From: Candidatus Omnitrophota bacterium
GTDB lineage: Bacteria > Omnitrophota > Gorgyraeia > Gygaellales > Profunditerraquicolaceae
DNA: 64,000 nucleotides
NCBI GenBank assembly: GCA_041651115.1
Contig: JBAZJY010000001.1
Coordinates: forward strand, 517,165 to 581,164
Reading direction: 5' to 3'
The notes beneath the pieces were generated by a model. It was not told the DNA's origin and did not search any database. It saw only the letters and a program-made list of their open reading frames with translations. Made by a program: the position numbers and the translations under genes. Positions 9,094-63,307 of this stretch are shown here, piece after piece (positions within the stretch are counted from its first letter, which is position 1; every line of letters starts with the position of its first letter).

Positions 9094-9165
9094 ACAAAAA
9101 AAGTAGGGACAGACACTACTTTTTTTCTTACGCACTTATAAAAAAGTAGTGTCTGTCCCTACTTT
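9094..9165. repeat. GTAGGGAC-family palindromic element, inverted pair upstream of rpoN
   Basis: aaaaagtagggacagacactacttttt at 9094-9125 and its exact reverse complement at 9139-9165, separated by a 13-nt spacer. Confidence 0.8.
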
Positions 9166-9182
9166 TGTGCTATACTTATACC

Positions 9183-10475
9183 ATGGAATTAAGGCAAAAA
9201 ATTGAACTAAGAAAGCACCTTATTCCAGAGCTCAGCCAATCTCTTAATATTCTTGCCCTGCCTTTGTTTGAGGTCCAAAACCTCATTGCTGAAGAACTGG
9301 AAAATAACCCCCTGCTGGAAGAACTAAGCCGGCCGGCTAGCCAAAGGTCTAAGCTGGTAGGCCCGGACTGGGACTTCCAAATGGACCTGATCACCCAAAA
9401 ACCCACCCTGCAGGATATGCTGCTCAGGCAGCTGGGCATGTTTACCAATACTGATGAAGAGTTCAGGATCGGCCAGGAAATTATCGGAAATATTGATGAA
9501 CACGGCTACCTGAAAGCCACGCCTGAAGAGCTTTCCGCCAGCCTGAATATGGCCCCGGAAAAGGTAGAAAAAGTCCTAAAATTGGTGCAGGAATTTGAAC
9601 CTGCGGGAGTCTGCGCCAGGACGCTTTCTGAATGCCTGCTGATCCAGCTAAGGCTATCCAACCAGGATGACCCCCTGCTATTAAAGATCGTAGAATGCCA
9701 CCTTGAGGACCTTGCTAAGAAGAATTACAGCCATATTGCCAAAAGCCTCAAAACCCCCCAGGAAACCCTTGAGCCGCTGATAAAAAAGATCCTCAAACTT
9801 GACCCCAAACCCGGCAGCAACTACTCTCCGCAAGAAGTCCAGCGCGTTATCCCGGATATCTTTATAGACACCCAGGATGAAGAAGAAACCTTAGAAATCA
9901 GCATAAATAACGAAGACATCCCCAGCCTTGCCATTAGCAAAGATTACCGCAAAATGCTCAAAAATAGCGATACGGACAGCAAGACTAAGGAGTTTCTCAC
10001 GGCAAAGCTGCAAAATGCTATGGAACTACTACGGGCGCTTTCAAGAAGGCAGGATACGCTAAGAAAGATCGTGGAAGCGGTTGCGGAGATCCAAAAAGAA
10101 GCAATGACCGAAGACTTATCGCGGCTTAAGCCCCTTACTTTTAGCGAAGTAGCAGAAAAGATCGGTATGCACGAATCAACCGTATGCCGGGCAGTAATGA
10201 ATAAATACGTGAAAACGCCTTACGCGGTAGTGGCGCTAAAGGATTTCTTCACCAGCCACGTGCACAACCAGGACGGCGAATCGGTTTCTTCAAATTTTGT
10301 GAAAAGGCAGATCAAAGAATTGATTGATGGGGAAAATAAAAAGCAGCCGCTGAGTGATGATGATCTTGCAAAACTTTTATCAGAAAAAAACAACCTGAAA
10401 GTTGCCCGCCGCACAGTTGCCAAATACCGCGAAGAACTCAAAATCTTGTCTTCTATCTACCGAAAAGAAAGGTAA
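9183..10475 (+). CDS. rpoN: RNA polymerase sigma-54 factor
   Basis: C-terminal RpoN box ARRTVAKYRE; HTH; glutamine/leucine-rich N-terminus; start moved to MELRQK (9183) to clear the upstream hairpin. Confidence 0.9.
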   Translation: MELRQKIELRKHLIPELSQSLNILALPLFEVQNLIAEELENNPLLEELSRPASQRSKLVGPDWDFQMDLITQKPTLQDMLLRQLGMFTNTDEEFRIGQEIIGNIDEHGYLKATPEELSASLNMAPEKVEKVLKLVQEFEPAGVCARTLSECLLIQLRLSNQDDPLLLKIVECHLEDLAKKNYSHIAKSLKTPQETLEPLIKKILKLDPKPGSNYSPQEVQRVIPDIFIDTQDEEETLEISINNEDIPSLAISKDYRKMLKNSDTDSKTKEFLTAKLQNAMELLRALSRRQDTLRKIVEAVAEIQKEAMTEDLSRLKPLTFSEVAEKIGMHESTVCRAVMNKYVKTPYAVVALKDFFTSHVHNQDGESVSSNFVKRQIKELIDGENKKQPLSDDDLAKLLSEKNNLKVARRTVAKYREELKILSSIYRKER

Positions 10476-10500
10476 AAAGTAGGGACAGACACTACTTTTT
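10474..10500. repeat. third copy of the GTAGGGACAGACACTAC element (self-complementary AAAAAGTAG/CTACTTTTT ends) between convergent rpoN and the activator gene
   Basis: Identical 27-mer to 9099-9125; overlaps the stop codons of both flanking genes; plausible bidirectional terminator hairpin. Confidence 0.7.
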
Positions 10501-15000: not shown

Positions 15001-15612
15001 TTAAGCTTTCTTTCTTCCTAATCCAAATAACCCTAAAATACCCATACCTAATAACACCATGCTGCTCGGTTCAGGAGTTGCCGGAGCATACGTCTTGATA
15101 GTGGCGATACCGCCATCTATAAGCTGTGTGCTGCCCCATGTGTAGTTCTTAGCGTTAGTCTGCACCCAAAAAACCGGTGAAGTCTCGCCCGGATCAACCT
15201 CCAGACCTGCTGGATGATTGAAGCCGATTGTACCGCCGGAAGAATTTCTTTCCATCTCCCAGTTAGCCACTAAGACGTCAACATCAGTAGTGAAACCTGA
15301 AAAGTTGGTAATTGACATCCTATGGATTGCATCTCTACCAGCAACTAGATCATTATCGAATTGATATGTAAAGAGCATCCCAGTGTCATTTTTGAAAACC
15401 TGCTGGGTTAATGTGCCGGTGAACATTATGTTCGTCAGCGCATCTACGCCAGTGAAGTCTTCCACGAGCGTAAAAAGCAAAGTCCCGCTCGGCACAGCCG
15501 CTCCGGTTGAAAGAGAATCTCCTGCTCCCGGCATAAGCGAAACTGCTTGCGCGGATGCGGAAATACCTAAGACCAAAGCGCACATCACGATTGCTATTAA
15601 TAACTTCTTCAT
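15001..15612 (-). CDS. PEP-CTERM sorting-domain protein
   Basis: Signal peptide; C-terminal TPEPSSMVLLGMGILGLFGLGRKKA (PEP motif + TM + basic tail); SD GGAGGTGAAAC upstream. Confidence 0.8.
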   Translation of the reverse strand: MKKLLIAIVMCALVLGISASAQAVSLMPGAGDSLSTGAAVPSGTLLFTLVEDFTGVDALTNIMFTGTLTQQVFKNDTGMLFTYQFDNDLVAGRDAIHRMSITNFSGFTTDVDVLVANWEMERNSSGGTIGFNHPAGLEVDPGETSPVFWVQTNAKNYTWGSTQLIDGGIATIKTYAPATPEPSSMVLLGMGILGLFGLGRKKA

Positions 15613-15665
15613 TTTTGTGTTTCACCTCCCTCTTTGTAATATTTTTGCTGCTAAAAAGAGAAAAA

Positions 15666-16271
15666 TTAAGCTTTTCTCCTTTTAATGCCAAACAACCCTA
15701 AAGCACCCATCCCTAGCAATACCAAACTTGCCGGTTCGGGAGTAGCTACGGGGTCTATCTTGTTAACTATAAGGTTGTCAATTTCAGTTTCACCTGTCCA
15801 GTTATCGTGAAAATACAATTCATATACCGGAGAGGCAAAAGTGTAAGTGCTAAGATGACCACTTACATTTTGGTTATTGGATGGTGTGTTATTAAGAAAA
15901 AACTCAACCCCATCGGCTTCTGCATGGAAAGTCAAATCCTGTTCTCTAGCCCAGTCAAATTCAACCGAACTGATTGGATCAGCAAACTGGATGCGAAATC
16001 CATGTATAACCCCTTGTCCGCCGACAGTCGCGTTTTCAATGTGTCCGTCAGGACCTAAAAGGTCACCTTCATTGGTCGGGCTCGATTCAGCTCCTATAAC
16101 GGTTACCGTAGAGCCATACAATGTGGACATATAGGTTCCAATGGCTGCCGCGTTAGAATTAGCAAGTAGGGCGGGAGCATTGAAATCAAATGTCACCAAT
16201 GTAGCATGCGCTGTTCCGGCAAAACCGAAAGCAAAACAAACAGCCGCTAAAATTACTAACAGTTTCTTCAT
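15666..16271 (-). CDS. PEP-CTERM sorting-domain protein
   Basis: C-terminal ATPEPASLVLLGMGALGLFGIKRRKA; signal peptide; strong SD. Confidence 0.8.
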   Translation of the reverse strand: MKKLLVILAAVCFAFGFAGTAHATLVTFDFNAPALLANSNAAAIGTYMSTLYGSTVTVIGAESSPTNEGDLLGPDGHIENATVGGQGVIHGFRIQFADPISSVEFDWAREQDLTFHAEADGVEFFLNNTPSNNQNVSGHLSTYTFASPVYELYFHDNWTGETEIDNLIVNKIDPVATPEPASLVLLGMGALGLFGIKRRKA

Positions 16272-16275
16272 TTTT

Positions 16276-17001
16276 TTATTTCACCTCCTTCGTTTTATTG
16301 ATTTTATTATCGCGTTTACCGCGTAATAAGCCTATTCCCAGCAAGCCTAACCCCAGCAGCGAGACGCTGGCGGGTTCAGGCGATGCAGGGTTAAGATGAA
16401 CGATCATGTCTTGATAATCTGTATCATTATTCCCGGACAGGCTTAAATCTTCAAAACAAATCAGGTATCCGTAATATTGGCTGCCGAATTGCGAATAGCC
16501 GCTCAAATCAAATACTATTGCCTGAAGATTATCATTCAAATTATCAGCGGTATTCGTATAATAATAATTTCCGCTGCCATTGGCATCTATCCAAAAACCA
16601 AGGCTGTTTGCATTGTTGAAATTGGCGCTTGCACTGATCGAATCAGGACCGCTAAAAATTTCTGTCGAGAGCTGTCCATCATACCAGCCAAAACGGTTAT
16701 TATTTTTATAGCCTGCGACTTCCGCTATAATCTCGGCAGAATATCCGTGCGCTGCCTGCCACAAAGTATCTTTATAAACACCGTAGCTACCCGATGTCCC
16801 TAATCCAGAAACGTCATTGTAAACATCCTGCGCCAAGGCAGTATAGCCGGCAGAAGATAAAACCGACCAGAGCTCGGAATGATCCCATGACGCGCCGTAG
16901 TTACCATTCAGGGATATCGGAGTTCCGGAAAAACTCGCGAACGCTATCTGCGATAATCCGATAACCAGGCCGATAACTAATATAATGATGCGATTTTTCA
17001 T
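16276..17001 (-). CDS. PEP-CTERM sorting-domain protein
   Basis: C-terminal SPEPASVSLLGLGLLGIGLLRGKRD; signal peptide; Gly/Ser/Tyr/Asn-rich body. Confidence 0.8.
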   Translation of the reverse strand: MKNRIIILVIGLVIGLSQIAFASFSGTPISLNGNYGASWDHSELWSVLSSAGYTALAQDVYNDVSGLGTSGSYGVYKDTLWQAAHGYSAEIIAEVAGYKNNNRFGWYDGQLSTEIFSGPDSISASANFNNANSLGFWIDANGSGNYYYTNTADNLNDNLQAIVFDLSGYSQFGSQYYGYLICFEDLSLSGNNDTDYQDMIVHLNPASPEPASVSLLGLGLLGIGLLRGKRDNKINKTKEVK

Positions 17002-17618
17002 TATTTTTTTCTTTTTAAACCGAACAATCCTAATAAACCTAATCCCAGCAGCGAAACGCTGGCAGGTTCAGGAGTGGCTGCGGTAGTAATGGTAAACGAA
17101 ACACCTGTGTTATAATAGTGGCAATCCGGATCAACACCAAAACCAAAATTAGCCCTATTCGATGCGTGCGGTGAGTTAATATAGCTGGTAAGCTCATCAA
17201 GTAAGCCCAGGGAAGCAAAATCATAAACCAGGTTAAACCCGGTTGCACTGCCACCTGCGGGATCAGACCAGACGCCGACTAATGTACCCTGCCCATTGAA
17301 ATAATCGCCGTTGCCATCCGAGCCTGACCTTACGCCGGTTCTCGGATTATCCAAAAGATGGACATACAAATGATCCTCATTTACGCCGGATTCATTTGTC
17401 CAGTCCCAAATATTATTGAAGGTGAGCGTAGCTCCGGTGATCTTCTGGCCTGCAGGAATATTGTTCCAATTGATTCCCCAGGTATAATAGTGGCCATGGT
17501 CAAGATCGCCTAAGTCAACAGGGTTTGGGGCAAAGGTGTATGTATTCGCATGAGCTAAATTAACAAAACCAAAACTTAATAAAACCGCCAATAACAGAAA
17601 CTTGGTCCTCGTAATCAT
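17001..17618 (-). CDS. PEP-CTERM sorting-domain protein
   Basis: C-terminal TPEPASVSLLGLGLLGLFGLKRKK; signal peptide. Confidence 0.8.
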   Translation of the reverse strand: MITRTKFLLLAVLLSFGFVNLAHANTYTFAPNPVDLGDLDHGHYYTWGINWNNIPAGQKITGATLTFNNIWDWTNESGVNEDHLYVHLLDNPRTGVRSGSDGNGDYFNGQGTLVGVWSDPAGGSATGFNLVYDFASLGLLDELTSYINSPHASNRANFGFGVDPDCHYYNTGVSFTITTAATPEPASVSLLGLGLLGLFGLKRKK

Positions 17619-18334
17619 TTTTTTCTCCTTATCCCAAGTAGTCCTAACAATCCTATACCTAATAACGAAATACTCGCAGGTTCAGGCGTTACCGATCCTT
17701 TTACATAATCGTTTGCGCAGGTAGCAGTAGCGTAATGCACGTTGAACGCGCTATCATTAAAGCCGTTTGATCCGGTAATATCAAACTGCGCGCGAATGAC
17801 AAAATCCGGTATGCCGTTAAATCTATCGTGCGTTAAATCGTTCCAGTATCTGGCAACGCTGGACGAATTTGCCAATAGGCTTCCGGAAGCTATGGTTACT
17901 ATCTGATTGGTATTATAGGTGAGGCCAGCTACGGCATAGTGATTAGACAAAAACCAATTATTAACGTTGTATAAGCTGCCAGCTATCAAACCGTCGTGTG
18001 ACGTAACCGCAAGGCCGTATTCATAAATACCATCTGAATCCGCATCTATTGCCAAATCGCCGGGAAATGTTTTCCAGCTGCCGACAGTTACGGTTTCATC
18101 CGTAGGATAATTACCATCATTGGGATAATTAGTATAAATATCAAAAGTAAGGTTATTACCGGAACGAAAAACATTAATGCCATAAAGCTCAAAAACTGCA
18201 TCCCCTACCCTGTCAACCGGGCCATTCTGCCAATTAGTAGGATTATCAATAAGGTCATTGATCGTATAGGCAAATGCCATATTGCTTAATGCCAGAAACC
18301 CGATAAAAGCTAATAAAATAATTCTCTTTATCAT
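17615..18334 (-). CDS. PEP-CTERM sorting-domain protein (first gene of the array)
   Basis: C-terminal TPEPASISLLGIGLLGLLGIRRKK; signal peptide. Confidence 0.8.
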   Translation of the reverse strand: MIKRIILLAFIGFLALSNMAFAYTINDLIDNPTNWQNGPVDRVGDAVFELYGINVFRSGNNLTFDIYTNYPNDGNYPTDETVTVGSWKTFPGDLAIDADSDGIYEYGLAVTSHDGLIAGSLYNVNNWFLSNHYAVAGLTYNTNQIVTIASGSLLANSSSVARYWNDLTHDRFNGIPDFVIRAQFDITGSNGFNDSAFNVHYATATCANDYVKGSVTPEPASISLLGIGLLGLLGIRRKK

Positions 18335-22350: not shown

Positions 22351-22429
22351 TAGGGACGGTTCTGCGGGCAAAGGGAAAAGTGTCCTGTTTTTTAGGGACA
22401 CTTTTCGCTTTGGCCCAGAACCGTCCCTA
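22351..22429. repeat. nested TAGGGAC-family palindromic element
   Basis: Outer arms tagggacggttctgcgggcaaag / ctttggcccagaaccgtcccta with inner arms aaaagtgtcc / ggacactttt; overlaps the last 11 codons and stop of the GT4 gene at 22392. Confidence 0.75.
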
Positions 22430-23558
22430 ACGATTTAAATACTACTTTCCAATCATACTTTTCTTCAACAAGCCTGCGTCCATTCTCCCCCAATTTCAAC
22501 CGCAAACCTTCATCCTGCAATAATTCTATAACTGCCTGCGCAAAATCTTTTGGATTATCTCTAATCAAAAGGTGCTCCGCGTCTTTTACCTCCAGCCCTT
22601 CGCAGCCTACAGAAGTCGTAACTATCGCTTTCCTCATACTCATTGCCTCTAAGATCTTCAGACGTGTACCGCTGCCGATCCTAAGTGGTACGATATAAAC
22701 AGAAGCTTTACCCATAAACTCGCGCACGTCATCTACAAACCCGGTAACCAAAATATTATTATCTCTTTGCGCCAATGATTTAATTCTGGCTGACGGCCTA
22801 TCGCCTACTATCCAAAGTTTTACTTCTGGGACAATCTTTTTGACCACTGGCAGAATTTGCTCGCTAAAATAAACAAGGCCATCTTCATTAGGATACCATC
22901 CGATCTGCCCGGTATAAACTAGGGTATTCGCTTCAACCGGATATGACCCGGGGCTAAAATATTGCAGATCAACACCATTATTAACCGTGATTACCCTTTC
23001 TTCACCAACAACAGCCTCTATCGCTTTCTTATCAACATCAGAACAGGCAATACAATAATTGAATTTACCCCACATCTTTTTCTGCAGCAGCTTAAATTTA
23101 AGATATTCCATATAAGCGAATATTTTCTTAAAGATATTGCGCTCTAAACGCGCGTACCTTCCGGCTATTGTCGCTTCAATATTATGTTCATAAAGCACCT
23201 TAACGCCGGTTACGTCAAAAGGAATATTTAAAGATCTATGAATCCCATCACAAATAATAAGATCAACCGGATTTTCCTTGCAGCGCTGTCTGATTTCCTG
23301 TCTAACCTTATTATCCGTTCTTATTTTCACCGAAAAAGGGACAAGCGAAAGCAGGCTTGAGATAAAAATTATAACTTTTTGAATGATATTCTTCTTCAAC
23401 TCGCCATTAACGAGGGCAACATCATTGGAGACGGATCCCCGAAGGGGGCCTGTCCCCTTCTTCAAATAATCAACAAGATAATAATTCCGCTTTTTATATC
23501 CATTAACCGGCGGACTAGGATTATCTCTAACCAGAAATATTGCTCTCATATTATTCAA
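22392..23558 (-). CDS. family 4 (GT-B) glycosyltransferase
   Basis: C-terminal GT1/GT4 motif RIGSGTRLKILEAMSMRKAIVTT..GCEGLEV. Confidence 0.8.
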   Translation of the reverse strand: MNNMRAIFLVRDNPSPPVNGYKKRNYYLVDYLKKGTGPLRGSVSNDVALVNGELKKNIIQKVIIFISSLLSLVPFSVKIRTDNKVRQEIRQRCKENPVDLIICDGIHRSLNIPFDVTGVKVLYEHNIEATIAGRYARLERNIFKKIFAYMEYLKFKLLQKKMWGKFNYCIACSDVDKKAIEAVVGEERVITVNNGVDLQYFSPGSYPVEANTLVYTGQIGWYPNEDGLVYFSEQILPVVKKIVPEVKLWIVGDRPSARIKSLAQRDNNILVTGFVDDVREFMGKASVYIVPLRIGSGTRLKILEAMSMRKAIVTTSVGCEGLEVKDAEHLLIRDNPKDFAQAVIELLQDEGLRLKLGENGRRLVEEKYDWKVVFKSLGTVLGQSEKCP

Positions 23559-25362: not shown

Positions 25363-26575
25363 ATATCCTTTCCAATGCTGTGGACATAAAAATAAAAAAC
25401 CAGAGAATCCGATCCTGTTGCGCATGCAAGAAGATCCCAGCAATTAAGAACCCAACTAATCCGAGATAAAACCCTTTAGCGTACCCACCAAGATCAGATT
25501 TAGATTTTATTATTCGATTTAAACCCCTAAAAGTATAAAAAATTATACCCAAAAATAGAAAAATCCCGATTGTCCCTAACTCTGCCATCATCTCAAGATA
25601 CATATTATGCGCCCGACCCGGATAAACTGGCGCATAATTACGATTTTCATAATAATAATTTCCTACCCCAATACCAAACAAAGGGTGAGCTAGGAATATT
25701 CTCCAAGCAGCTTGAGATAAATAGTACCGACGCGTAGTAGAATCAATATCGCCTTCACCAGTACCATATGCATTAGCGCTTACTTGTATTTTTCCGAAAC
25801 GCTCACGTAACGTTTGGGGCATCGCACTTAGAAAAATCGCTACTGTAATGCAAACTAATATAATTGTAATTATTTTCCTTTTGGCTTTGAAAACTAAAAT
25901 TAAAAACATCCCTCCTAGACCAACCATACCACCACGAGAAACTGTAAAGACTAATGCAAATAAGATCGTGGCTGCTATTCCAGATAAAATTATTTTTAAA
26001 ACTTTATTTTTTTCAACTAAAAACATATAGAATGTAACCGCAATAAATGGCAGGGTCATAATGGCAAATTCGTTTGGACCGTAACCTGTTCCTCCCGCTC
26101 TGCCTAACCCTGAATAAGATAGCACAGTTTGAATGCAAATAAAAAACATCGCGATTGCGATAAACCAAAGTACTAACTTGAATTGCTTAATTTTATGTAG
26201 CAAAATGATTATAGCTACCCCTAGAATCGCACTTGAAGTAAACATCGTGAAATTTTCTCGGGAAGCAAATCCCGGTTGGGTAACACCGGAAATGAACACC
26301 CAAATTAAAAACAGAAAAAAGTAGCGTATTTGTGGCTTTTTAAAAAAATTCCAGGCTCCACTTCTCCCGCCGTAATGCATTAAAGTTGATATAAAGGTCA
26401 GGCTTCCGATAATTTTAATCGGAGTCACCATGGTAAATAACCCAAGGAAACTGCCTCCTAATGTTTGTTGCGTTGATATAGGAATCAAAATAACCGTAAG
26501 CGCCAAACCAAATATTGGGCTTGCGAAGATTCCTATCGCTAACACTATGCCAACTACAATAAAAATCAGGTTCAT
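25343..26575 (-). CDS. O-antigen ligase/polymerase-like membrane protein (exosortase-locus associated)
   Basis: About 10 TM segments with a central periplasmic loop, Wzy/WaaL-like topology. Confidence 0.6.
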   Translation of the reverse strand: MNLIFIVVGIVLAIGIFASPIFGLALTVILIPISTQQTLGGSFLGLFTMVTPIKIIGSLTFISTLMHYGGRSGAWNFFKKPQIRYFFLFLIWVFISGVTQPGFASRENFTMFTSSAILGVAIIILLHKIKQFKLVLWFIAIAMFFICIQTVLSYSGLGRAGGTGYGPNEFAIMTLPFIAVTFYMFLVEKNKVLKIILSGIAATILFALVFTVSRGGMVGLGGMFLILVFKAKRKIITIILVCITVAIFLSAMPQTLRERFGKIQVSANAYGTGEGDIDSTTRRYYLSQAAWRIFLAHPLFGIGVGNYYYENRNYAPVYPGRAHNMYLEMMAELGTIGIFLFLGIIFYTFRGLNRIIKSKSDLGGYAKGFYLGLVGFLIAGIFLHAQQDRILWFFIFMSTALERIYEKNYS

Positions 26576-28845
26576 TCTTTCACCTTGCTTACTACGATTG
26601 AATACAATTGTTCGGTTCTATCTATTTGCTTCCTGATATCAAATCTTTCTTCAATGTGCCTTCTTGCATTTTCTCCAAAACCTTTAGCTAATTCTCTATT
26701 CTTAAGAAATATTTCAATCCCTTCTTTTAGGGCTATGCTATCTTTAGCAGGAACAATAAGCCCTGTTTTATCATTAACTACCGCTTCCGGACTACCGTCA
26801 ACATTAGTTGCGATTACCGGCTTGCCCATCGCACCCGCTTCCAGCGCCACTAATGGGAGCCCTTCGTATAATGAAGGTAAAACTAACAAATCAATCTCCT
26901 TTAATACATTCTCAATATCTCTTCTGTATCCCACAAATTCTACCCTCTCGGAGATTCCCAACCTTTTAGCTTGCCTCTCAAGCTCATTTCTTAAACTGCC
27001 ATCACCTGCTATTAAGAATTTTACATCATCGTATTTACCATCCAAGAGACTAACTGCATCCAAAAAATATTTATGCCCTTTTTGCGGCTCTAACCTGCCG
27101 ATTACCCCTATCGTAAATAGGGACTGTCCCCGTAGGGGACTGTCCCTATTTACAGAAGGCTTGAACCTTGCCAGGTCAATCCCGTTATGAATAACTTCTA
27201 TTTTCTTCTCATCTAATTCTTTTTCATTGACCAGATAACTTTTTACCGCATTAGAAACCGCGATAATCTTATCCACAAAACGATAAAAAAATCTATCTAC
27301 AAAATATGACCTTTTAATTCCTTTTCGCCACGCCTCCCTTAAATGGCTAGTATCTATTACGACCGGGATACCCGCTAATTTTGCCAATGGCGCGGCAAAA
27401 CGAGTGGCAAAAAATAAATGTGAATGCACAATATCCGGTTTTTCTTCTTTAAGAATACCCATGAACTTCTTTATTTCACTTAAATTACGCCAACGCCTTA
27501 TATCAACAGAATAAAATTTTATTTGTAGCCTTTCCAGATCCGGCTTTATTTGCTCGATCAGTTGCCGCGGACATATAAGAATCGGTTCAAACTGCGTCTT
27601 ATCCAATCCTTCAATTAACCGTAGCACATGTTCCTCTACCCCCGCCCTTACTACTGAATTAAGGAAATACAATACTTTTAGGGACTGTCCCCGTAGGGGA
27701 CTGTCCCTAAAAGCCATCAACTTAAAGAAATCTTTTACATCGTCTATCTTTTGCTCTATCTTTTGGTTACTCACCAATACTGCATCCATCGTGCTATTTT
27801 TAATATCAAACCCATGCATTCCTTGTGGCTGCCTGTTCCCCATAAAACTCGGGTTTATCACTACCCCGGCATCCATCAAAAATATAACTTCGCCATACAT
27901 ATCATTGCTGAAATCAATGCCCAATTCTTTGATTTCATTTTCCGGTAATATCCGGCCATAGCTCTTGGTTTTGAGCACATCTAGGATCGCGCTTTTGGCT
28001 TTCTGATTAAAAAACCAGAAACGCGCCATAGTGGAATCATAAAATGGAACATAATCATTCGGGGCCGTAAATCTAAGCTTCTCGATCTCTGCTTTAAGGT
28101 TTTCACTCTTTTCCACTGGGGCCATGCCATGGTCAGAGAAGATATATAGATTTACATGCCTTGACTTGTCTTTTGCGATCCGGTAAAGGTCCTTGATCTC
28201 TCCTTCATATCCATCTATCGCAGCATTAACCTTTGCCCTATCTTTGCAGGACGAATGCAATAAGGCATCAAATTCTGACAAATACAAGAAATAAAAATCA
28301 CTTTCGCGCTTTTCAATGCTTTCCTTTGCGCCGGTAATGATCTCTTTATCTTTAAGCGGATATGCGAAACAACGGTAACCAGCTCCTTCTTTTTCCAAGA
28401 TATCAAAGATGGTTTCTGCCTCTTCTATACCTTTAGAAGCGTAGATGTTCTTTCTCTCACAGATATCATACAAATAAAGCTGCGCAACAGGAATAAGATA
28501 TGTTTCAAAATAACCCGTATAGCCCATCAAGTGCTTGGATATTTCTTCAATAATTTTGCGCGTTATCCGTAAATTCAAAACTGCATCCGGAAGCCAAAGC
28601 AGCGCCTTAGTCCATCTAAATGGCGAAGTCTTAGGTGAATAAAAATAAAGTGACCAGTGTTTGTGCTCCTGCGGATACTTGCCGGTCAATATTGAAGGGA
28701 TGACCCCGCTGGAAAAGCCCAAAATGCTTTTTACCGGCATTTTCGTAACCGCGATATTATTTAAAAAATGCCTATCCCGGATATATTCCCATCCTAGGGC
28801 ATCAATAAGGATAAATATATTAGTTATTTTATTCGTGTTTTCCAT
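26572..28845 (-). CDS. fusion protein: alkaline-phosphatase-superfamily phosphodiesterase domain + family 4 glycosyltransferase
   Basis: N-terminal half has the AlkP/nucleotide-pyrophosphatase-like ILIDALGWEY motif; C-terminal half (from KVLYFLNSVVRAGVEEHV) is GT-B with EGLPLVALEAGAMGKPVIAT; two in-frame repeat-encoded RDSPLRGQSL peptides. Confidence 0.7.
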   Translation of the reverse strand: MENTNKITNIFILIDALGWEYIRDRHFLNNIAVTKMPVKSILGFSSGVIPSILTGKYPQEHKHWSLYFYSPKTSPFRWTKALLWLPDAVLNLRITRKIIEEISKHLMGYTGYFETYLIPVAQLYLYDICERKNIYASKGIEEAETIFDILEKEGAGYRCFAYPLKDKEIITGAKESIEKRESDFYFLYLSEFDALLHSSCKDRAKVNAAIDGYEGEIKDLYRIAKDKSRHVNLYIFSDHGMAPVEKSENLKAEIEKLRFTAPNDYVPFYDSTMARFWFFNQKAKSAILDVLKTKSYGRILPENEIKELGIDFSNDMYGEVIFLMDAGVVINPSFMGNRQPQGMHGFDIKNSTMDAVLVSNQKIEQKIDDVKDFFKLMAFRDSPLRGQSLKVLYFLNSVVRAGVEEHVLRLIEGLDKTQFEPILICPRQLIEQIKPDLERLQIKFYSVDIRRWRNLSEIKKFMGILKEEKPDIVHSHLFFATRFAAPLAKLAGIPVVIDTSHLREAWRKGIKRSYFVDRFFYRFVDKIIAVSNAVKSYLVNEKELDEKKIEVIHNGIDLARFKPSVNRDSPLRGQSLFTIGVIGRLEPQKGHKYFLDAVSLLDGKYDDVKFLIAGDGSLRNELERQAKRLGISERVEFVGYRRDIENVLKEIDLLVLPSLYEGLPLVALEAGAMGKPVIATNVDGSPEAVVNDKTGLIVPAKDSIALKEGIEIFLKNRELAKGFGENARRHIEERFDIRKQIDRTEQLYSIVVSKVKE
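27118..27148. repeat. 31-nt tandem-REP-like palindrome TAGGGACTGTCCCCGTAGGGGACTGTCCCTA inside the GT4 interdomain linker, in frame
   Basis: Identical to the copy at 27679-27709; translated on the minus strand as RDSPLRGQSL. Confidence 0.85.
27679..27709. repeat. 31-nt tandem-REP-like palindrome at the AlkP-GT4 domain junction, in frame
   Basis: Exact duplicate of 27118-27148 with AT-rich inverted flanks. Confidence 0.85.
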
Positions 28846-30252: not shown

Positions 30253-31376
30253 AATTTTATCATTGAGCTTATATCGCCTATTTCATCAACCCTGGATTGT
30301 ACGAAAGCGTATCCTTTTTCGCCAAAAGATTTTGCCAAGTCTGGCCTATCCAAGAGGAAAGTAATCTTCTCCGCAAAAGCCTGCGGATCCTTCCTTTTTA
30401 CAACGAATCCGGTCTCACCATTTACCATCCATTCTCTTAGGCCGGATACATCAGTACTTACAATCGGCTTCTTGGATAATATCGCCTCCACGATTACCGT
30501 AGCCCTTCCTTCAAATATTGAAGGAAGAACAAAAATATCGCTTGCAGCATAAAATTGCGGGATAAGCTGATGCTCTATGGCGCCGGCAAAAATAACATTG
30601 GAAGAAATACCCATCTTTTTAGCCAAATCCTTTAAAAATGCCTCCTTCGGCCCTTTACCAGCTATCAAAAGTAGTGTATTTGGCTTCTTTTTTAGGATTA
30701 TCGCAAATGCCGAAAAAAGATTCGGAATGTCTTTTTGGTCAACTAGCCTCCCAACGAACAGCAATATTTGCTCAAACCCCTTATTCAAATACTCCTGCCT
30801 AATCTTAGAACCATCAGTTGCATTAAAACGCTTCAGGTCGGAATGCACCGAAATTAAAGATATACGATCCTGCGCCACTCCATATTTTTCTAATTTTTCT
30901 TTTGTTTCACTGGCAACTACCCTGATCGTATCCGACCGCTTGCAGATAAATTTGCCTAAAGCGTTAAATAAGACATTAACCGGCCTCATTTTTATCCAGT
31001 ATTCATTATCAACAAAATCAATGTGCGCCTGAATATTAAGCGGTATTTTAAACTTCTTCTTCAGCAAATATCCGGTAAAGCCGGTTGTAAACGGGTCTTC
31101 CGCGGTTATAGCGTCTATTTTGTTTTCTCTGCAGATAGCTGAACAGATTTTATACGCATCATAAATAAAAGCGAGCTTATTCCGTGAATTTGTCGGATAT
31201 ACCCAGAGGTTATCTGCCCACTGTTCGGGCTTTAAGTTTAAATTCTTGGGAGAATAAACAATCAACCTTAAAGAACCAAGTTGCTTCGCATAGTCAAATT
31301 GGCGCTCGCGCACATCCCCACGTACACTGTCTTTTTTTAACATTAAATAATCTAAACCAATTGCTAAAAGATGCAT
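30222..31376 (-). CDS. family 4 glycosyltransferase
   Basis: GT-B; LFVGRL...KG and EGRATVIVEAILSKKPIVSTDVSG motifs. Confidence 0.75.
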   Translation of the reverse strand: MHLLAIGLDYLMLKKDSVRGDVRERQFDYAKQLGSLRLIVYSPKNLNLKPEQWADNLWVYPTNSRNKLAFIYDAYKICSAICRENKIDAITAEDPFTTGFTGYLLKKKFKIPLNIQAHIDFVDNEYWIKMRPVNVLFNALGKFICKRSDTIRVVASETKEKLEKYGVAQDRISLISVHSDLKRFNATDGSKIRQEYLNKGFEQILLFVGRLVDQKDIPNLFSAFAIILKKKPNTLLLIAGKGPKEAFLKDLAKKMGISSNVIFAGAIEHQLIPQFYAASDIFVLPSIFEGRATVIVEAILSKKPIVSTDVSGLREWMVNGETGFVVKRKDPQAFAEKITFLLDRPDLAKSFGEKGYAFVQSRVDEIGDISSMIKLWEDTARSVK

Positions 31377-50426: not shown

Positions 50427-51983
50427 TCATAAACTATTATTCAAATACGCCGGATGCGGTTTGCCGATGATCTGATAAAAATTACGCGCGTGCATGCGGA
50501 ATAATTTATCAAAATCTCCGTTGGGGTCTTCGCCATACCACCAGAACCAGTCGCTTCCTTCCAAAACGCGCATTTGTTTCCACGCCAGCTTAATGTCAAT
50601 GCCGTCTGAACCTTCCTTCTCTATTCTTTCAAGTTCGGAGCGCGCTTCAGTCAGGCTTTCCCACGCGCGATTCTTATGCGGGTTGCCGATCCATTTGCCG
50701 AACTCGCCGTAAATCCATGAGCCCGGGGCAAGGCGCTTGATCTCATGCTCTGCCGGATGTGATTTTAAATATTCCTGCGGCGTGGTTGCGGTAACGAATT
50801 TGGCGCTGGATAAATTTTCATAAAGCAGCTCAAGAAAATCATGGCCGTCATTGGCATAATATTCCCATGCGTTCTCACCGTCCATTGCGATCGTAACAAG
50901 AATATCCTGGTTCTTAAAAGCGGCTGCGATATTTTCCAAATGCTTCATAAAATCGGCAACCGCGGACTTTGAATCCCAGCGATGATAAACAAAACCGATA
51001 AGGTCGGAAAGATTGCGGTCGCGGAAAATAATGCTTAGCTGTCCCTCTTTGCCCTTTAAGAGGTGCGGCTTATATAAAGCGCGGGTATCCCGCTTTTTAA
51101 GGCCCAATGACCTGAATAATATGCCTTCATCGGCAACAATCCATTTAATCCCGGATTCCATAATGAACGGTAATATGTGCCGGCTTACCGCTTCTTCCGA
51201 AGGCCACATGCCCGCCGGCGCCATACCGAAACGCGCCTTGTAGAATTCCACTGCTTCGTCAATTTGCGCTTTGGCATCCTGCGGCCAGCTGAATTGGACC
51301 TGCGGCAGCGTGGTTTTGATATTTGCCTCTTTGGCAGTCTTGGTATTATAAAGCAGCGGCAGTATTGGATGGTAATACGGGCTGATAGAGGCCTCAATCT
51401 GGCCCTTTGCGATGAATTCCTTATAAACGGGGATAACGCCGGAAAGGATCTCTAACTGGGTATTTAAGACAATGGTCTTATCTTCTTCATTGTAGAACCG
51501 GCCTTTGCCAACGATCTTTTTTAATGCCGGGATATTGCGGCGGAAATACGGGTCAAACCAGGCAAGGTTAAACCAAACCTGCAGGTCAAGGAAGTCTTGA
51601 GTGGTAAAATTCTTGCTGGCCTTATGTTTTAGATAAAGCTCGTAGTAACGCGGATGTACTGCAATACACTTTTCAGGGTTAATGCTGAAGAAACGGCTAA
51701 GTAGGAATTCTTTATCCTGTTGGTCAAGCTTATCCGCCGGCTTAAGGGTAAGCTCAAAAAATTTGTCCTTTACTTCGCCGCTAACGTAATCTTCTACCTG
51801 TTCTACCAGCGAAGGCACAAGATTGAATGTCTGGCGCACTGCCGGATACTTATCCAGCATTTTAACCATATCAAGGTAGTCTTTGATGCCGTGCAGCCGC
51901 ACCCAAGGCACATCAGTCTCCTTGGTAAGGAGATTCTTGTAGTACGGCTGATGCATGTGGAAGATAAAGGCGAGGTATAGCAT
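50427..51983 (-). CDS. glycoside hydrolase family 57 enzyme (alpha-glucan branching/amylase-type)
   Basis: N-terminal FIFHMHQPYY GH57 signature; 518 aa as in GH57 branching enzymes. Confidence 0.85.
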   Translation of the reverse strand: MLYLAFIFHMHQPYYKNLLTKETDVPWVRLHGIKDYLDMVKMLDKYPAVRQTFNLVPSLVEQVEDYVSGEVKDKFFELTLKPADKLDQQDKEFLLSRFFSINPEKCIAVHPRYYELYLKHKASKNFTTQDFLDLQVWFNLAWFDPYFRRNIPALKKIVGKGRFYNEEDKTIVLNTQLEILSGVIPVYKEFIAKGQIEASISPYYHPILPLLYNTKTAKEANIKTTLPQVQFSWPQDAKAQIDEAVEFYKARFGMAPAGMWPSEEAVSRHILPFIMESGIKWIVADEGILFRSLGLKKRDTRALYKPHLLKGKEGQLSIIFRDRNLSDLIGFVYHRWDSKSAVADFMKHLENIAAAFKNQDILVTIAMDGENAWEYYANDGHDFLELLYENLSSAKFVTATTPQEYLKSHPAEHEIKRLAPGSWIYGEFGKWIGNPHKNRAWESLTEARSELERIEKEGSDGIDIKLAWKQMRVLEGSDWFWWYGEDPNGDFDKLFRMHARNFYQIIGKPHPAYLNNSL

Positions 51984-52018
51984 TAGGTGATAGGTGTTAG
52001 GTAATAGGTGTTAGGTTT
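51984..52018. repeat. array of five tandem TAGGTNN heptamers abutting the GH57 start codon
   Basis: taggtga taggtgt taggtaa taggtgt taggttt; an inverted copy lies at 52404-52431 and a direct copy at 63273-63307. Confidence 0.85.
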
Positions 52019-52031
52019 AAAGTGATGGATA

Positions 52032-52403
52032 TTAAGCATATTTCCCGAGTGAATTCTTAAGACCGTTTAACATTTTACCACATTCATTATATTCTTGCAC
52101 AAAATAATTATATTTATCTTCCGCAACATATTGCTTCTTAAAGGCAATTGATATATGATGTCTGGTTTCCTGAATTTCTCCTTGCGCCCGGTTAATACCC
52201 TCTAAATAAATATTTAAATGTTTATTATTCCAACCTTCGGCAAGATTCGCAGGGGCTGAATTAGAAGATCTTCTTAATTGGGAGCCTAACTCATACTTTT
52301 CAAAATCAGGAAATTCCTGTGTTAAAGCAGAAACCTCCAAATGTAGCTTACATAATTTTTGATAAACGTCTAAATCCTCAAAGCTATTTATTTGATTTTT
52401 CAT
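52032..52403 (-). CDS. four-helix-bundle protein (TIGR02436; 23S rRNA intervening-sequence-type protein)
   Basis: DLDVYQKLCKL...SAPANLAEG signature of the family; 123 aa. Confidence 0.75.
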   Translation of the reverse strand: MKNQINSFEDLDVYQKLCKLHLEVSALTQEFPDFEKYELGSQLRRSSNSAPANLAEGWNNKHLNIYLEGINRAQGEIQETRHHISIAFKKQYVAEDKYNYFVQEYNECGKMLNGLKNSLGKYA

Positions 52404-54206: not shown

Positions 54207-54233
54207 TAGGGACGTCCTTTCAGGTACCACCCT
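54207..54233. repeat. REP-like element copy (CTAGGGACGTCCTTTCAGGTACCACCCT) overlapping the AbiEii stop codon
   Basis: Shares the GGGACGTCC...GGTACCACCCT core with 56435-56460, 57148-57173 and 60295-60320. Confidence 0.75.
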
Positions 54234-54891
54234 GCAAGGCCGCTTTTATCTTCATCTCCAAAATAGCGAATTTTTTTGCAGTGTAATACCTACGCTCATC
54301 TTCCTCCAATAAAGAACCCAGCTTTACGGAGTAATCTTTTGCAGTAAAAGACGTTACCCCTCTTAACAGTCTTTCCAAAACCTCGGCAGGCTCATCCAGC
54401 GCTGCGCCTTTTTTCAAAAGAAACTCAATGTCAAAGGCGTCACGGATCTCTTTTCTGTCTAAAAGCGCCCGGATTTTTGCCGTCAGCATATCCTTTAAAG
54501 ACAGGGCATTCAAAATAACCTGCACGTTTGAATACTTGCTGTATGCGATGGACCGTTCTGATTTTACGGCCTTAAGCTCTTTTCTGATCTCCAGCTTCAG
54601 GGCCCGCGGAAAATTTTTTGACCGGATCTCAAAAAGTATTGTATAAAATTTATCCGTTGCGTCTTTTACCGTATAATAGCGGCTAAGGCAATCCTTTAGA
54701 TTGCGGAATAATTTTTGGGCATCGGTTTTTTTATTGAGCCAAAAATCCAAATCTACGGAAAACCGGTTTAAACCGTAACAGAGCCTAAGCATTGTGCCTC
54801 CGCCAAAAACAAGCCCGCTCAATAATTTTGCGCTGTTTAGCCGATCCAAAACCTCTAATTCAAATTGTTCCTGTTTTATGAGATCCCGCAT
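54220..54891 (-). CDS. AbiEii/DUF1814-family nucleotidyltransferase toxin
   Basis: LVFGGGTMLRLCYGLNRFSVDLDF NTase motif characteristic of AbiEii. Confidence 0.7.
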   Translation of the reverse strand: MRDLIKQEQFELEVLDRLNSAKLLSGLVFGGGTMLRLCYGLNRFSVDLDFWLNKKTDAQKLFRNLKDCLSRYYTVKDATDKFYTILFEIRSKNFPRALKLEIRKELKAVKSERSIAYSKYSNVQVILNALSLKDMLTAKIRALLDRKEIRDAFDIEFLLKKGAALDEPAEVLERLLRGVTSFTAKDYSVKLGSLLEEDERRYYTAKKFAILEMKIKAALQGGT

Positions 54892-56434: not shown

Positions 56435-56460
56435 GGGGACGTCCTTTAAAGTACCACCCT
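56435..56460. repeat. REP-like 26-mer (GGGGACGTCCTTTAAAGTACCACCCT) downstream flank of the RAYT
   Basis: Inverted relative to 57148-57173; overlaps the RAYT stop codon and abuts the lipB start. Confidence 0.8.
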
Positions 56461-57049
56461 ATCTGATCTTAAACACTTTATCTACAATGAGGTCGTAAGG
56501 CCTGTCCTCGGATACATATTTGATATAGGCCTCTTGCCTCTTCTCTTGTATATGGGCCAATCCCGAATAGAGCAAATTAGGCATAATTATTATATCATCG
56601 GTAGAGCCGTAAGCATAGTAAGAAAAACTGCTCCATTTATATCTTGATAAATTATCAACTATTCCTGCACGCAGAGGATTCCGTTCAATATACCTTGCGC
56701 ATTCTAAAAGATAAGCATCATTATTTATGGAGCGGCTCTTATACCGGTTCTGAAAGATAAACCCGACAGAACCATAACGCTTGCGGAATGTAACCGCATA
56801 TACCTGCAGAATTGATTGCATAAATTTTGGTAGATCCGATGCTTTAATAGCTTTAAGCAGCAGGTGTATGTGGTTTGGCATAATGCAGTAATTGGTTATC
56901 TTGACTTCGTAGGAGTGCTGGTATTGCTTAAGTATTGCCAAAAAGTATTCATAGTCATGCTTGCACCTAAACAGGCGCCTACGGTCAATACCCCTTGTAA
57001 CTATATGATAATACCCTCCGTCTATCAAGGCTCTACTTACTCTTGGCAT
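56459..57049 (-). mobile_element. IS200-like Y1 HUH transposase, REP-associated (RAYT) type
   Basis: HUH motif PNHIHLLL and catalytic-Tyr helix ARYIERNPLRAG (Y-x3-NP); 196 aa; flanked by inverted REP-like 26-mers. Confidence 0.75.
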
Positions 57050-57147: not shown

Positions 57148-57173
57148 AGGGTGGTACCTGGAAGGACGTCCCC
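57148..57173. repeat. REP-like 26-mer (AGGGTGGTACCTGGAAGGACGTCCCC) upstream flank of the RAYT
   Basis: Reverse-complement orientation of the 56435 copy; ends 2 nt before the lpdA stop codon. Confidence 0.8.
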
Positions 57174-58468: not shown

Positions 58469-59382
58469 TTGATCTCTTTATACTGTTCCTTTAATTTAGC
58501 TGCGCAAGCCTGCAGGCTGCTAAGTTCCTCTGTATTCAATTCCAATTCAATTACTTTTTCAATGCCGCTCTTGCCTAATTTGCAGGGTGAACCTATGCAA
58601 ACGTCTTTAATGCCGTATTCGCCGTTTAAGTAAGCGGAAACCCCGACTACGCGGCTATGGCCCCTGGCAATGATACCGGCCAGCTCTGCGATCGCTGCCG
58701 AAGGCGCGAAATAAGCGCTGCCTGAACCAAGTAAAGAAACGATCTCTTTGCCCCGGTCAAAAGTACGAGCGGCCAATTCACGGGCCTTATCACTACCCAC
58801 GATCTTATCAAGGCTTGAGCCTTTTACTTTTGTAAAGCGAGTTAAAGGCATCATACCTTCGCCATGGCTGCCGATCACACAAGGCTCTATCTCGGTTACC
58901 GGAATATTGAGTTCATTGCTAATGAGATTAGCAAAGCGCGAAGCATCCAGTGTAATACCCATGCCAAATACTTTACTTGGGGCAAAACCCGTAACCTGCA
59001 AGGCAAGCCGGGTCATTAAATCAAGGGGATTGGTGACGATGATTACGATTGCCTGCGGACTAAGCGATTTTATATTTAAGCAAACGTCTTTTAGGATCTG
59101 CGCGTTCTTATTCAGCAGGTCCTCGCGCGTCATTCCAGGCTTGCGCGCCAAGCCTGCGGTAACGATCACGATATCAGAACCGCTGATCCCATTAATATCA
59201 TCTGTGCCGGTAATGTTAAAGTCGGACTTTAACAATAGCCGGCTATCGTCCATATCAAAGGCCTTACCTTGCGCAATACCCTTGGCAATATCCACCAAAA
59301 AAATATCGCCTAACCCATCCTGGGCAAGGCGCATTGCAGTTAAACCGCCGACATTACCAGCTCCGATAACGGATATTTTCAT
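58465..59382 (-). CDS. mdh: malate dehydrogenase (LDH-like MDH)
   Basis: [13 protein letters not shown] Rossmann motif, catalytic TNPLD and GSHGE regions. Confidence 0.8.
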
Positions 59383-60443
59383 TTTAATTTTGCAATAATT
59401 GCGTCTGCCATTTCCGCAGTACCCACGCTTGAGGGGTCGTCGCGACGCGGCTTTAAGTCATAAGTCACGGACTTGCCTTCGGCAATCACCTGCTTGACTG
59501 CGGTTTCCAGCCGATTAGCAGCTTCTTTTTCCCCGATATGCTCAAGCATCAATACTCCGGATAAGATCATTGCCGTAGGATTGACTTTATTCATACCGGC
59601 ATACTTTGGCGCTGAACCATGCACTGCCTCAAATACTGCCATTTCATTGCCGATATTGGCGCCGGGAGCAATGCCTAATCCGCCGATCAGGCCGGCGCAA
59701 AGATCGGAAATAATATCGCCGTAAAGGTTAGGCAGTACCAGGACATCGTAATTCTCCGGACGCTGCACTAATTGCATTGACATATTATCCACGATCGCGT
59801 CTTCAAAGGCAACCCTTCCGGTATATTCTTGAGCAACTTCCTTTGCGACTTTCAGAAATAGCCCGTCGGTAAATTTCATAATGTTTGCTTTATGCACGGC
59901 AGTGACTTTTTTACGGTTATGCTTTAAGGCATATTCAAAGGCAAACTTAACGATGCGTTCGGAAGCAGTCCTTGAGATTGGTTTGATGGAAATGCCGGAA
60001 TCCGGACGGATCTTTTTTTTATTGTATTTGGCGATCTCTTGGATCAAGTGCTCGGTTTCCGGCTTGCCCTCTTCAAATTCAATACCGGCGTAAAGGTCTT
60101 CGCTGTTCTCCCTGATAATCACCAGGTCAATATTCTTGTAGTGGCTCTTTACTCCTGCGTATGATTTAGCCGGCCTGACGCAAGCATATAAGTCTAATGC
60201 CTGCCGGATCGCCACGTTAACCGAACGGAAGCCACTGCCGACAGGCGTCGTTATCGGGCCTTTTAGCGCGACTTTTGTCTTTTTTACGCTCTCAAGGGTG
60301 GTACCTGGAAGGACGTCCCCGTATTTTTCGAGCACCTCTTCCCATTCAATCTTCACGCCGGTAGCGTCAATGCAGCGCTTTGCTGCCAACGCCACTTCAG
60401 GGCCAATGCCGTCTCCCGGTATTAAAGTGATCTTATAAGCCAT
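59379..60443 (-). CDS. isocitrate/isopropylmalate dehydrogenase-family enzyme (Icd-like)
   Basis: [45 protein letters not shown] motifs; most similar in pattern to prokaryotic IDH. Confidence 0.75.
60295..60320. repeat. REP-like 26-mer identical to the RAYT flank, located inside the icd/leuB-like CDS in frame
   Basis: AGGGTGGTACCTGGAAGGACGTCCCC, 26/26 identity with 57148-57173; encodes GDVLPGTTL. Confidence 0.8.
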
Positions 60444-63272: not shown

Positions 63273-63307
63273 TAGGTGTTAGGTCTTAGGTGCTGGGTGT
63301 TAGGTGA
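63273..63307. repeat. array of five tandem TAGGTNN heptamers abutting the leuC start codon
   Basis: taggtgt taggtct taggtgc tgggtgt taggtga, same orientation as 51984-52018. Confidence 0.85.

Follow-up and report, generated by a model that had tools for sequence, protein, structure and literature searches.

REP-like palindromic repeats at the interdomain linkers of a phosphodiesterase-glycosyltransferase fusion enzyme of an Omnitrophota bacterium

Introduction

How does the same DNA palindrome come to lie twice, in frame, at two domain boundaries of one enzyme? This question is raised by a gene on contig JBAZJY010000001.1 of a Candidatus Omnitrophota bacterium (assembly GCA_041651115.1), found in the 64-kb stretch of DNA that was analyzed here as a whole (the window; coordinates refer to it). 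The gene, 26572..28845 on the minus strand, encodes a 757-amino acid (aa) fusion of a type I phosphodiesterase-like domain with a GT4 glycosyltransferase (GT), as recognized by Pfam and NCBIfam, and it contains two copies of a 31-nt palindrome. The original prediction, made from the letters of the DNA, took these for two insertions of a repeat that had each added ten residues to the protein.

Comparable behavior has been described for repetitive extragenic palindromic (REP) sequences of the GTAG type, whose dimers form one larger stem-loop, and which also lie in frame within genes, at times with two inserts in the same gene (Di Nocera et al. 2013, PMC3733652). GTAG REPs and REPINs (REP doublets forming hairpins) are mobilized by REP-associated tyrosine transposases (RAYTs) (Bertels & Rainey 2011, PMC3116915, PMC3337134; Bertels et al. 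2017, PMC5581495). Here, we argue that the 31-mers are probably REP/REPIN-like selfish palindromes in two permissive linkers, where occupancy is ancient and the repeats are renewed lineage by lineage.

Results and Discussion

Two identical in-frame copies of one hairpin

The 31-mer TAGGGACTGTCCCCGTAGGGGACTGTCCCTA (plus strand) was found again at 27118-27148 (copy 1) and 27679-27709 (copy 2), with none expected by chance. No further match was present in the window with up to three mismatches allowed, and none of 100 dinucleotide-preserving shuffles gave any. The 11-nt half-unit GGGACTGTCCC was confined to the two 31-mers, except for one match with a single mismatch at 23446. The copies are spaced by 561 nt, or 187 codons, and are read in the identical frame within the minus-strand open reading frame (ORF). 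Translation agreed with the predicted decapeptide, RDSPLRGQSL, which copy 1 encodes at aa 567-576, in the GT-B interdomain loop, and copy 2 at aa 380-389, at the junction of the phosphodiesterase-like and GT4 parts.

The inverted flanks that had been noticed around each copy were seen as copy-specific extensions of the palindrome, GTAAA/TTTAC around copy 1 (41 nt, 27113..27153) and CTTT/AAAG around copy 2 (39 nt, 27675..27713); the TTTAC flank of copy 1 corresponds to conserved Phe-Thr codons that are kept in orthologs. On either strand, each extended copy forms one hairpin that has a single mismatch at its center and a loop of 3 nt. It is built from two GGGGAC-N-GTCCCC arms, and the stem of 14 bp grows to 18-19 bp with the flanks. 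Hairpin energies per copy were about -31 kcal/mol for RNA and between -16 and -18 kcal/mol for single-stranded DNA, with z-scores from -6.9 to -9.6, and the 41-nt palindrome of copy 1 gave -18 kcal/mol and a z-score of -9.6 as DNA. The 31-nt core, with its one mismatch, is thus a short GC-rich imperfect palindrome within the size range of REPs (20-40 bp). Four of the six reading frames of the 31-mer, which ends in TA, and five of the six of its 27-nt core are free of stops.

The internal organization of the element differed from what had been proposed, namely a tandem REP doublet of units composed of GTAG plus a mini-palindrome. GTAG does precede the second half-unit, but the first is preceded by ATAG or TTAG, and the whole element acts as a single long hairpin. 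It is an inverted doublet whose arms show compensatory changes, rather than a head-to-tail pair of GTAG units.

The repeat-encoded peptides lie in interdomain linkers

Pfam domains were assigned to residues 10-347 (Phosphodiest), 402-560 (Glyco_transf_4) and 577-729 (Glycos_transf_1) of the protein, and its best NCBIfam match was a PEP-CTERM/XrtA-system glycosyltransferase family. The GT4 half superposed on the solved GT-B folds of PglA, MshA, BshA and HepE. The gene is set in a PEP-CTERM/exosortase polysaccharide locus, with Wzy_C, CBM_4_9, EpsH and EpsI as conserved neighbors in the loci of orthologs. The same two-part architecture was found in about 30 Omnitrophota orthologs; the fusion is therefore old. 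The idea that the junction element caused the gene fusion was ruled out, since the fusion is present in all of these orthologs, including element-free ones. Similarly, we dropped the notion that the 561-bp GT4 N-domain between the direct repeats is a mobile cassette, as this domain is found in all orthologs, even those free of the element, and the ortholog alignment was without any sign of cassette exchange.

An AlphaFold2 model built from the ortholog alignment had a mean pLDDT (predicted local distance difference test) of 87.6. Internal segments with a pLDDT below 50 were limited to residues 381-385, 509-511 and 567-573, two of these three being the repeat-encoded peptides. In the model, the junction peptide links helix 370-378 to strand 389-394, the first of the GT4 N-domain, and the GT-B linker peptide is coil preceding the first strand of the C-domain (577-582). 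Both peptides are predicted to be disordered. The placement originally proposed, one copy in the GT-B linker and the other between the alkaline phosphatase-like and GT4 halves, therefore matched both the Pfam boundaries and the model, in which the two peptides fall in low-pLDDT coil at domain boundaries. The Pro/Gly/Ser/Arg-rich decapeptide makes up most of each linker.

The two sites are occupied by hairpins in the closest orthologs

The closest-ortholog clade in the tree comprised P0001-P0009 and P0019, all but the last of which entered the DNA comparison. Most of its members bear hairpins at the same two sites as the window enzyme, and at least five hairpin families, including a nested hairpin, fill these sites across the clade. 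P0003 carries GGGGACAGTCCCC-TGC-GGGGACAGTCCCC at both sites, encoding GDSPLRGQSP, and P0002 carries GGGGACGG(G/T)TCCC-NNN-GGGAACCGTCCCC at both. In P0005, the junction copy has its loop flipped to GTA and encodes GDSPRRGLSP, which bears out the proposal that the opposite orientation is tolerated in frame, and a variant copy is found at the linker. P0006 lacks a hairpin at the junction, bears a tandem copy at the linker, and shows one more copy where the phosphodiesterase domain ends, which is a third site. In P0009, which also has this third site occupied, the linker has P0002-type arms with a second hairpin nested in the loop, and the junction contains an unrelated CCCCTCCCC...GGGGAGGGG hairpin. 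Still other hairpins were found at the sites in P0004 and P0008. P0007 has none at either site, yet it is nested within the occupied clade.

Wherever a GGGGAC-type copy occurs at the two sites, the frame is constant and the 3' boundary is similar: at the linker, GTCCCC is followed by a conserved Phe codon within one base, and at the junction by one codon plus AAA ATA CTT. Within one genome, the two sites usually carry the same variant, and between genomes the changes fall on both sides of the stem. Hairpins with stems of the GGGGAC/GTCCCC type, or with GC-rich stems of comparable length, clustered in the enzyme gene of the ortholog loci (15-22 kb), with few elsewhere, and this gene contained both of the longest stems found in L028 and in L030. 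Since related hairpins lie at the same sites in the closest orthologs, occupancy predates the window lineage.

Next, the linker lengths were compared. The GT-B linker most often measures 11 aa in element-free orthologs versus 15 aa in the window protein, a net gain of four. The junction linker measures 7-57 aa in orthologs versus 12 aa in the window protein, where it would shrink to 2 aa if the element was removed. In element-free orthologs, linkers of similar length are made up of unrelated residues. The clean 10-aa gap expected under simple insertion was therefore missing at both sites, and the repeat peptide replaced linker residues instead of simply adding ten. More than 20 more distant orthologs were without a peptide of this repeat family at the sites, with P0022 as a partial match.

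These data bear directly on the proposal of a recent double insertion private to the window lineage, in which an element-free gene received two independent 30-nt inserts of ten residues each. The 31 nt of the two copies are 100% identical, the TA-ended subtype also occurs at unrelated loci in other Omnitrophota-like contigs, and the sister lineages P0006 and P0009 have different variants, all of which would fit such an event. Moreover, a lineage-private insertion did happen in a neighboring GT gene (22392..23558), which contains in frame a decayed copy of the superfamily at 23433..23457 on the minus strand (coding strand GGGGACAGGCCCCCTTCGGGGATCC, including the half-unit match at 23446). It encodes GTGPLRGS, and five orthologous GT proteins have a clean gap of 8 aa at its position, indicating that an in-frame insertion of this superfamily took place in the window lineage. 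At the two linker sites, however, P0003, P0002, P0005, P0006, P0009 and P0019 have related hairpins in the same place and frame, the orthologous GGGGAC-type copies have a similar 3' boundary, element-free orthologs lack the 10-aa gap, and a junction without the element would be 2 aa long, whereas that of every ortholog has at least 7. A private double insertion, as originally predicted in its simple form, is thus rather unlikely.

The comparison also speaks to whether RDSPLRGQSL is a native ancestral motif, or an internal repeat at the protein level, with the DNA identity incidental. Close orthologs do have GDSPLRGQSP at equivalent positions, but the identity is at the DNA level and palindromic, the 27-mer core turns up as well in intergenic DNA, in further phyla and in different frames, the residues of distant orthologs are unrelated, and the peptide is predicted to be disordered. 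We regard this explanation as very improbable, and the earlier view that the peptide is derived from a DNA repeat was upheld.

Peptides suggestive of repeat families other than the GGGGAC type were seen in the linkers or C-termini of P0009, P0022, P0026, P0031 and P0008 (alignment A1; L033 12424-12470; L045). Peptides resembling repeat translations at these places include …ASVASLPRNDT, LLRPASGGTRNDT, QISADLEQISADI and HAIRNTQYAIR, and P0008 has a CACGCAC tandem repeat. Junction segments of distant orthologs such as LLRPASGGTRNDT and QISAD...HAIRNTQYAIR resemble translations of other repeat families. The junction linker appears to collect repeats across the whole enzyme family.

The 31-mer belongs to a dispersed superfamily of hairpins

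The 31-mer is part of a superfamily of GGGGAC...GTCCCC hairpins dispersed in Omnitrophota contigs, mostly intergenic or at gene ends and some in frame. Its 27-nt core, GGGACTGTCCCCGTAGGGGACTGTCCC, was unchanged in 27 stretches of species-representative genomes. The carriers were about ten Omnitrophota metagenome-assembled genomes (MAGs), one Actinomycetes MAG with seven copies on four contigs, other MAGs of Actinomycetota, Planctomycetota and Aminicenantes, and Gamma- and Betaproteobacteria, including the isolate Pseudoduganella. The core-bearing contigs had 39-73% G+C, and additional units were often nearby. The TA-ended 31-mer was present in six further metagenome stretches, and a search of viral contigs with the 27-mer core gave no match.

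The source of the window is itself a MAG, and an assembly artefact might be suspected. The ORF is intact, however, independent assemblies from other samples agree, a 31-nt repeat is too short to mislead assemblers, and the core is also found in the isolate genome; such an artefact can be practically dismissed.

Among 50 unit clusters in low-GC contigs, 24 were intergenic or in short ORFs, 9 were at ORF ends and 17 were inside long ORFs; related contigs carry up to 12 units in 14.7 kb. A unit upstream of a radical-SAM (RlmN-like) ORF is flanked by an A-tract and a T-tract, other copies overlap the stop codon of a tgt-like gene and of a plsX-like gene, and in-frame intragenic units were found in a RecG-like helicase, in an RmlB-like dehydratase at its first Rossmann loop, and in a membrane protein of 481 aa.

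The loops of 52 doublets were GTA/TAC in 38, GCA/TGC in 11 and GAA/TTC in 3, so that GTAG is one variant of a G-N-A loop. REPs of the GTAG superfamily are marked by a conserved unpaired GTAG (or GYAG/GTRG) at one end of the stem-loop, and have many dispersed copies, mainly outside genes. Of 142 single units, 54 were GTAG-tagged, and the first arm of the window doublets was not. The arms pair with each other as in the inverted two-unit hairpin of REPINs, and compensatory change was evident: 11 of the 18 stem pairs were altered on both sides (11 copies from 6 genomes), and none of 500 shuffles reached the observed scores. In some doublets (L037, L014, L034), about 29 nt separate the units, rather than 3 nt. 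Beyond the core, the palindrome extends on average by 3.1 nt in low-GC contigs versus 0.37 nt in controls, by 7 and 6 nt in the window copies, and by up to 9 nt inside coding sequence.

At 957-983 of L016 (Omnitrophota MAG JAPLMA010000012.1), a TGC-loop doublet lies in frame in the RmlB-like dehydratase (…FVRLLLK-GQSPAGTVP-SIVIVDKL…), with a perfect palindromic extension of 9 nt into the coding flanks (CTATTGAA/TTCAATAG). Orthologous proteins of about 255 aa (L016 3103-3113; L038 5949-5959) have the unit peptides QGQSPSGTVP and WGQSPQGPVP at the same position, which is a second instance of occupancy common to orthologs. A subfamily with conserved non-palindromic ends, TGCCAGTA-[doublet]-ACGACAAG, was found in L017, L023, L024, L036, L037 and L034; some of its members have the inter-unit spacer of about 29 nt that is the classic REPIN layout, and the copy in L024 lies about 30 nt downstream of a tRNA gene. 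An Rfam scan of the related loci gave a single hit, a tRNA adjoining one element copy.

Comparison with known palindromic elements

The nearest described precedent of the 31-mer is the intragenic GTAG REP (PMC3733652). Like GTAG REPs and REPINs, it is a short GC-rich palindrome with GTAG at one arm and a doublet that forms one larger hairpin, and its family is found mostly in intergenic DNA and at gene 3' ends, with a minority of copies in frame, sometimes twice per gene. Unlike them, it has an arm spacer of 3 nt, GTAG is just one of its G-N-A variants, its 27-nt core is identical across several phyla, and many copies have copy-specific palindromic flanks. The GGGAC/GTCCC family was not found in the supplement of PMC3733652, among the families with listed REP-encoded peptides, a difference from the described GTAG REPs. 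A literature search by motif sequences returned merely unrelated eukaryotic or viral primer matches.

The original prediction had named Rickettsia palindromic elements (RPEs) and Correia elements as precedents. As Ogata and colleagues reportedly described in 2000, RPEs are palindromic repeats inserted into protein-coding genes with the frame kept. RPE-1 elements measure about 100-150 bp and encode 30-50 residues, with no RAYT link established. The 31-mer is like RPEs, which are mentioned in PMC3733652 and PMC1779305, in being palindromic, in frame in genes, tolerated in surface loops and common to orthologs of related species, and unlike them in its 31 nt and 10 residues, its sequence family and its phylum.

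Correia elements are about 100-155 bp long, end in inverted repeats of 26 bp and duplicate a TA target. They resemble the 31-mer as small non-autonomous inverted repeats within or fused to ORFs, and the window copies are bounded by TA; these elements and other bacterial miniature inverted-repeat transposable elements have been reviewed in PMC10969869. In the 31-mer, unlike in Correia elements, the TA contributes to the stem, gives way to G/C in the copies of orthologs, and cannot be separated from the palindrome as a direct duplication. A TA target-site duplication was rejected for the 31-mer, as removal of the element plus one TA, 29 nt in all, breaks the frame and G/C replaces TA in orthologous copies. 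The in-frame behavior of the palindrome is shared with RPEs. Both precedents stand as analogies; membership in either family was excluded by the size and structure of the 31-mer. Membership in the REP/REPIN class is supported by structure, doublet organization and the presence of a RAYT, with partial agreement in the GTAG tag and the RAYT flanks.

A RAYT gene and its flanking repeats

The candidate mobilizing enzyme is a 196-aa RAYT, a transposase of the HUH/Y1 type, encoded at 56459..57049 on the minus strand, 29 kb from the 31-mers. A phmmer search with E. coli RayT against all window ORFs gave this single match (E = 9e-4), and the protein matched Pfam Y1_Tnp (4.6e-19) and NCBIfam REP_Tyr_transpos (81.7 bits versus a cut-off of 80). 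It had more than 500 homologs, of which the top-listed were of about 196 aa and those named by source were from Omnitrophota. A RAYT gene thus resides in the same genome as the repeats, as in REPIN-RAYT systems, where the gene is usually single-copy, and, also as in those systems, it is bracketed by related inverted repeats. These are two 26-mers, at 56435..56460 downstream (AGGGTGGTACTTTAAAGGACGTCCCC in gene orientation) and 57148..57173 upstream (GGGGACGTCCTTCCAGGTACCACCCT), that begin GGGGACGTCC and end GGACGTCCCC; the GGGGAC..GTCC start of the upstream repeat resembles the arms of the 31-mer. In other genomes, three RAYT orthologs are flanked by GGGGACGTTCCCC-AAAG-GGACACCCT ... AGGGTGTCCC-TTT-GGGGA(N)CGTCCCC. 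Taken over four Omnitrophota genomes, the window and these three, the RAYT flanks start GGGGACGT and end ACGTCCCC, and L041 has six dispersed copies of its own RAYT-flank type.

Two points weigh against a simple link between this enzyme and the 31-mer. The RAYT flanks and the 31-mer have their GGGGAC/GTCC(CC) ends in common, which connects them, and differ in the remaining sequence, unlike in known REPIN-RAYT systems, and none of the other fetched loci, 33 core carriers among them, contained a RAYT. Mobilization by the window RAYT is therefore what we infer rather than observe, and we lean slightly against a specific involvement of this protein in moving the 31-mers.

Two further copies of the RAYT-flank type were seen in the window, at 54209-54233 and 60294-60320. 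The latter is identical to the upstream flank at 27 of 27 positions and lies inside an isocitrate dehydrogenase-family gene (59379..60443), where it encodes GDVLPGTTL, in gapless alignment to the native GTPLPDATL of PDB 6lky_A. The region 54220-55466, immediately upstream of that of the RAYT, has an AbiEii toxin-domain ORF (54220..54891) that overlaps a 196-aa ORF lying upstream of it; AbiEii genes also occur within the polysaccharide loci of the orthologous contigs L028, L031 and L033.

Proposed origin and renewal of the repeats

The mostly intergenic or gene-end location of the copies, their doublet hairpins, the G-N-A loop and the stop-poor frames together give a profile of the REP/REPIN type, in line with our preferred explanation of selfish palindromes. 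Repeats would have entered both permissive linkers in the ancestor of the closest-ortholog clade, with the RAYT as the likely mobilizing enzyme. Renewal may then have come about through re-insertion into a hairpin already in place, through ectopic conversion with other copies as donors, or through template-switch correction of the palindrome, the last of which would also explain the copy-specific inverted flanks. Their persistence could be due to the lack of stops in most frames and to loops that would accept any flexible peptide, and may also have been favored by a tightly packed operon with overlapping genes and almost no intergenic space. The effect of the repeats on the enzyme is probably near neutral.

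Apart from the mismatch with the RAYT flanks, several observations weigh against this explanation. The 64 kb hold two intact copies and one decayed, all in GT genes of a low-GC polysaccharide island, and a dispersed, high-copy status in the source genome is unproven, as the counts cover the window. GTAG is not conserved in the family, where GCA and GAA loops also occur. REPINs are usually lineage-specific, and the 27-mer is identical in 40%-GC and in 64-73%-GC genomes of different phyla. Elements with fixed ends would not yield copy-specific palindromic flanks. Finally, the recurrence of hairpins exactly at domain boundaries could reflect selection for structure.

This last point was considered in its own right, as the alternative that nucleic-acid structures are selected at domain boundaries and repeat families merely provide the raw material. 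Such structures might act in ribosome pausing for co-translational folding of the three domains, in mRNA processing or stability, or in DNA recombination. At least five unrelated hairpin sequences at the same two boundaries, the pairing maintained by compensatory changes, the very stable stems (-31 kcal/mol in mRNA) and the filling of the third site in P0006 and P0009 are all in line with this. On the other hand, P0007 is hairpin-free at both sites and P0006 at the junction, the more than 20 distant orthologs lack the peptide of this repeat family (P0022 again matching in part), and domain boundaries are places where insertions are tolerated anyway. Moreover, neither copy was terminator-like in a consensus scan, no Rfam match was found in the whole window at gathering thresholds, and the same element is found at ordinary intergenic positions elsewhere. 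Selection for structure as the main cause is improbable in our judgment.

A combined explanation, in which the domain-boundary sites are landing pads with continual rewriting of the linker peptides, the element is a pan-phylum hairpin module and the hairpins have an additional use as pause sites, is unlikely, though a little less so. A RAYT acting on single-stranded hairpins would possibly retarget repeats into the loop or center of a hairpin already present, or hairpins might be regenerated in place by template switching. Recognition by a conserved enzyme might hold the GGGGAC-N-GTCCCC arms and the G-N-A triloop constant, and the hairpins, at two sites or at three in some genomes, could additionally serve as translational pause sites between domains.

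What the locus adds

In-frame intragenic REPs are already known in other bacteria, and the 31-mer is not a new type of element or system. New here are the phylum, this stem family, the replacement of native linkers, the persistent occupancy of hot spots with turnover of hairpin families, and the cross-phylum identity of the core. The locus extends in-frame REP insertion to the uncultivated phylum Omnitrophota, and it presents selfish palindromes that were not just added to the interdomain linkers of a multidomain enzyme but came to serve as those linkers themselves. With two sites, several families and agreement within genomes, it offers a tractable system for in-place renewal of REP-like hairpins, and it accounts for length variation and odd Pro/Gly/Ser/Arg-rich segments in the annotated glycosyltransferases of these MAGs. 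The fact that the 27-nt core is identical across phyla and the copy-specific palindromic flanks both raise the question of how such elements spread.

Genomic surroundings and other repeats in the window

The polysaccharide/exosortase island, at about 18000-40000, has 33-41% G+C versus 45-49% in its flanks, which is consistent with horizontal acquisition; all three GGGGAC-type copies of the window lie within it. At 15007-17699, four to five repeated segments of 58-77 nt are spaced by about 610-1330 nt. They are apparently PEP-CTERM sorting signals at the C-termini encoded by a series of paralogous genes on the minus strand, which would fit the EpsH/EpsI exosortase genes of the orthologous loci.

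A different hairpin repeat, AAAAAGTAGGGACAGACACTACTTTTT, with a GTAG...CTAC stem and A/T tracts, was found at 9098-9124, 9141-9167 and 10474-10500, and in a weaker form at 30667-30691. Its copies bracket a 436-aa ORF (9165..10475), whose sequence suggests a sigma-54 factor, with an inverted pair upstream and a single copy downstream, and they look like bidirectional terminator-type REPs. Lastly, a short tandem array of the 14-nt unit TAGGTGTTAGGTNA was observed at 51977-52039, with a related copy 11 kb away at 63273-63307.

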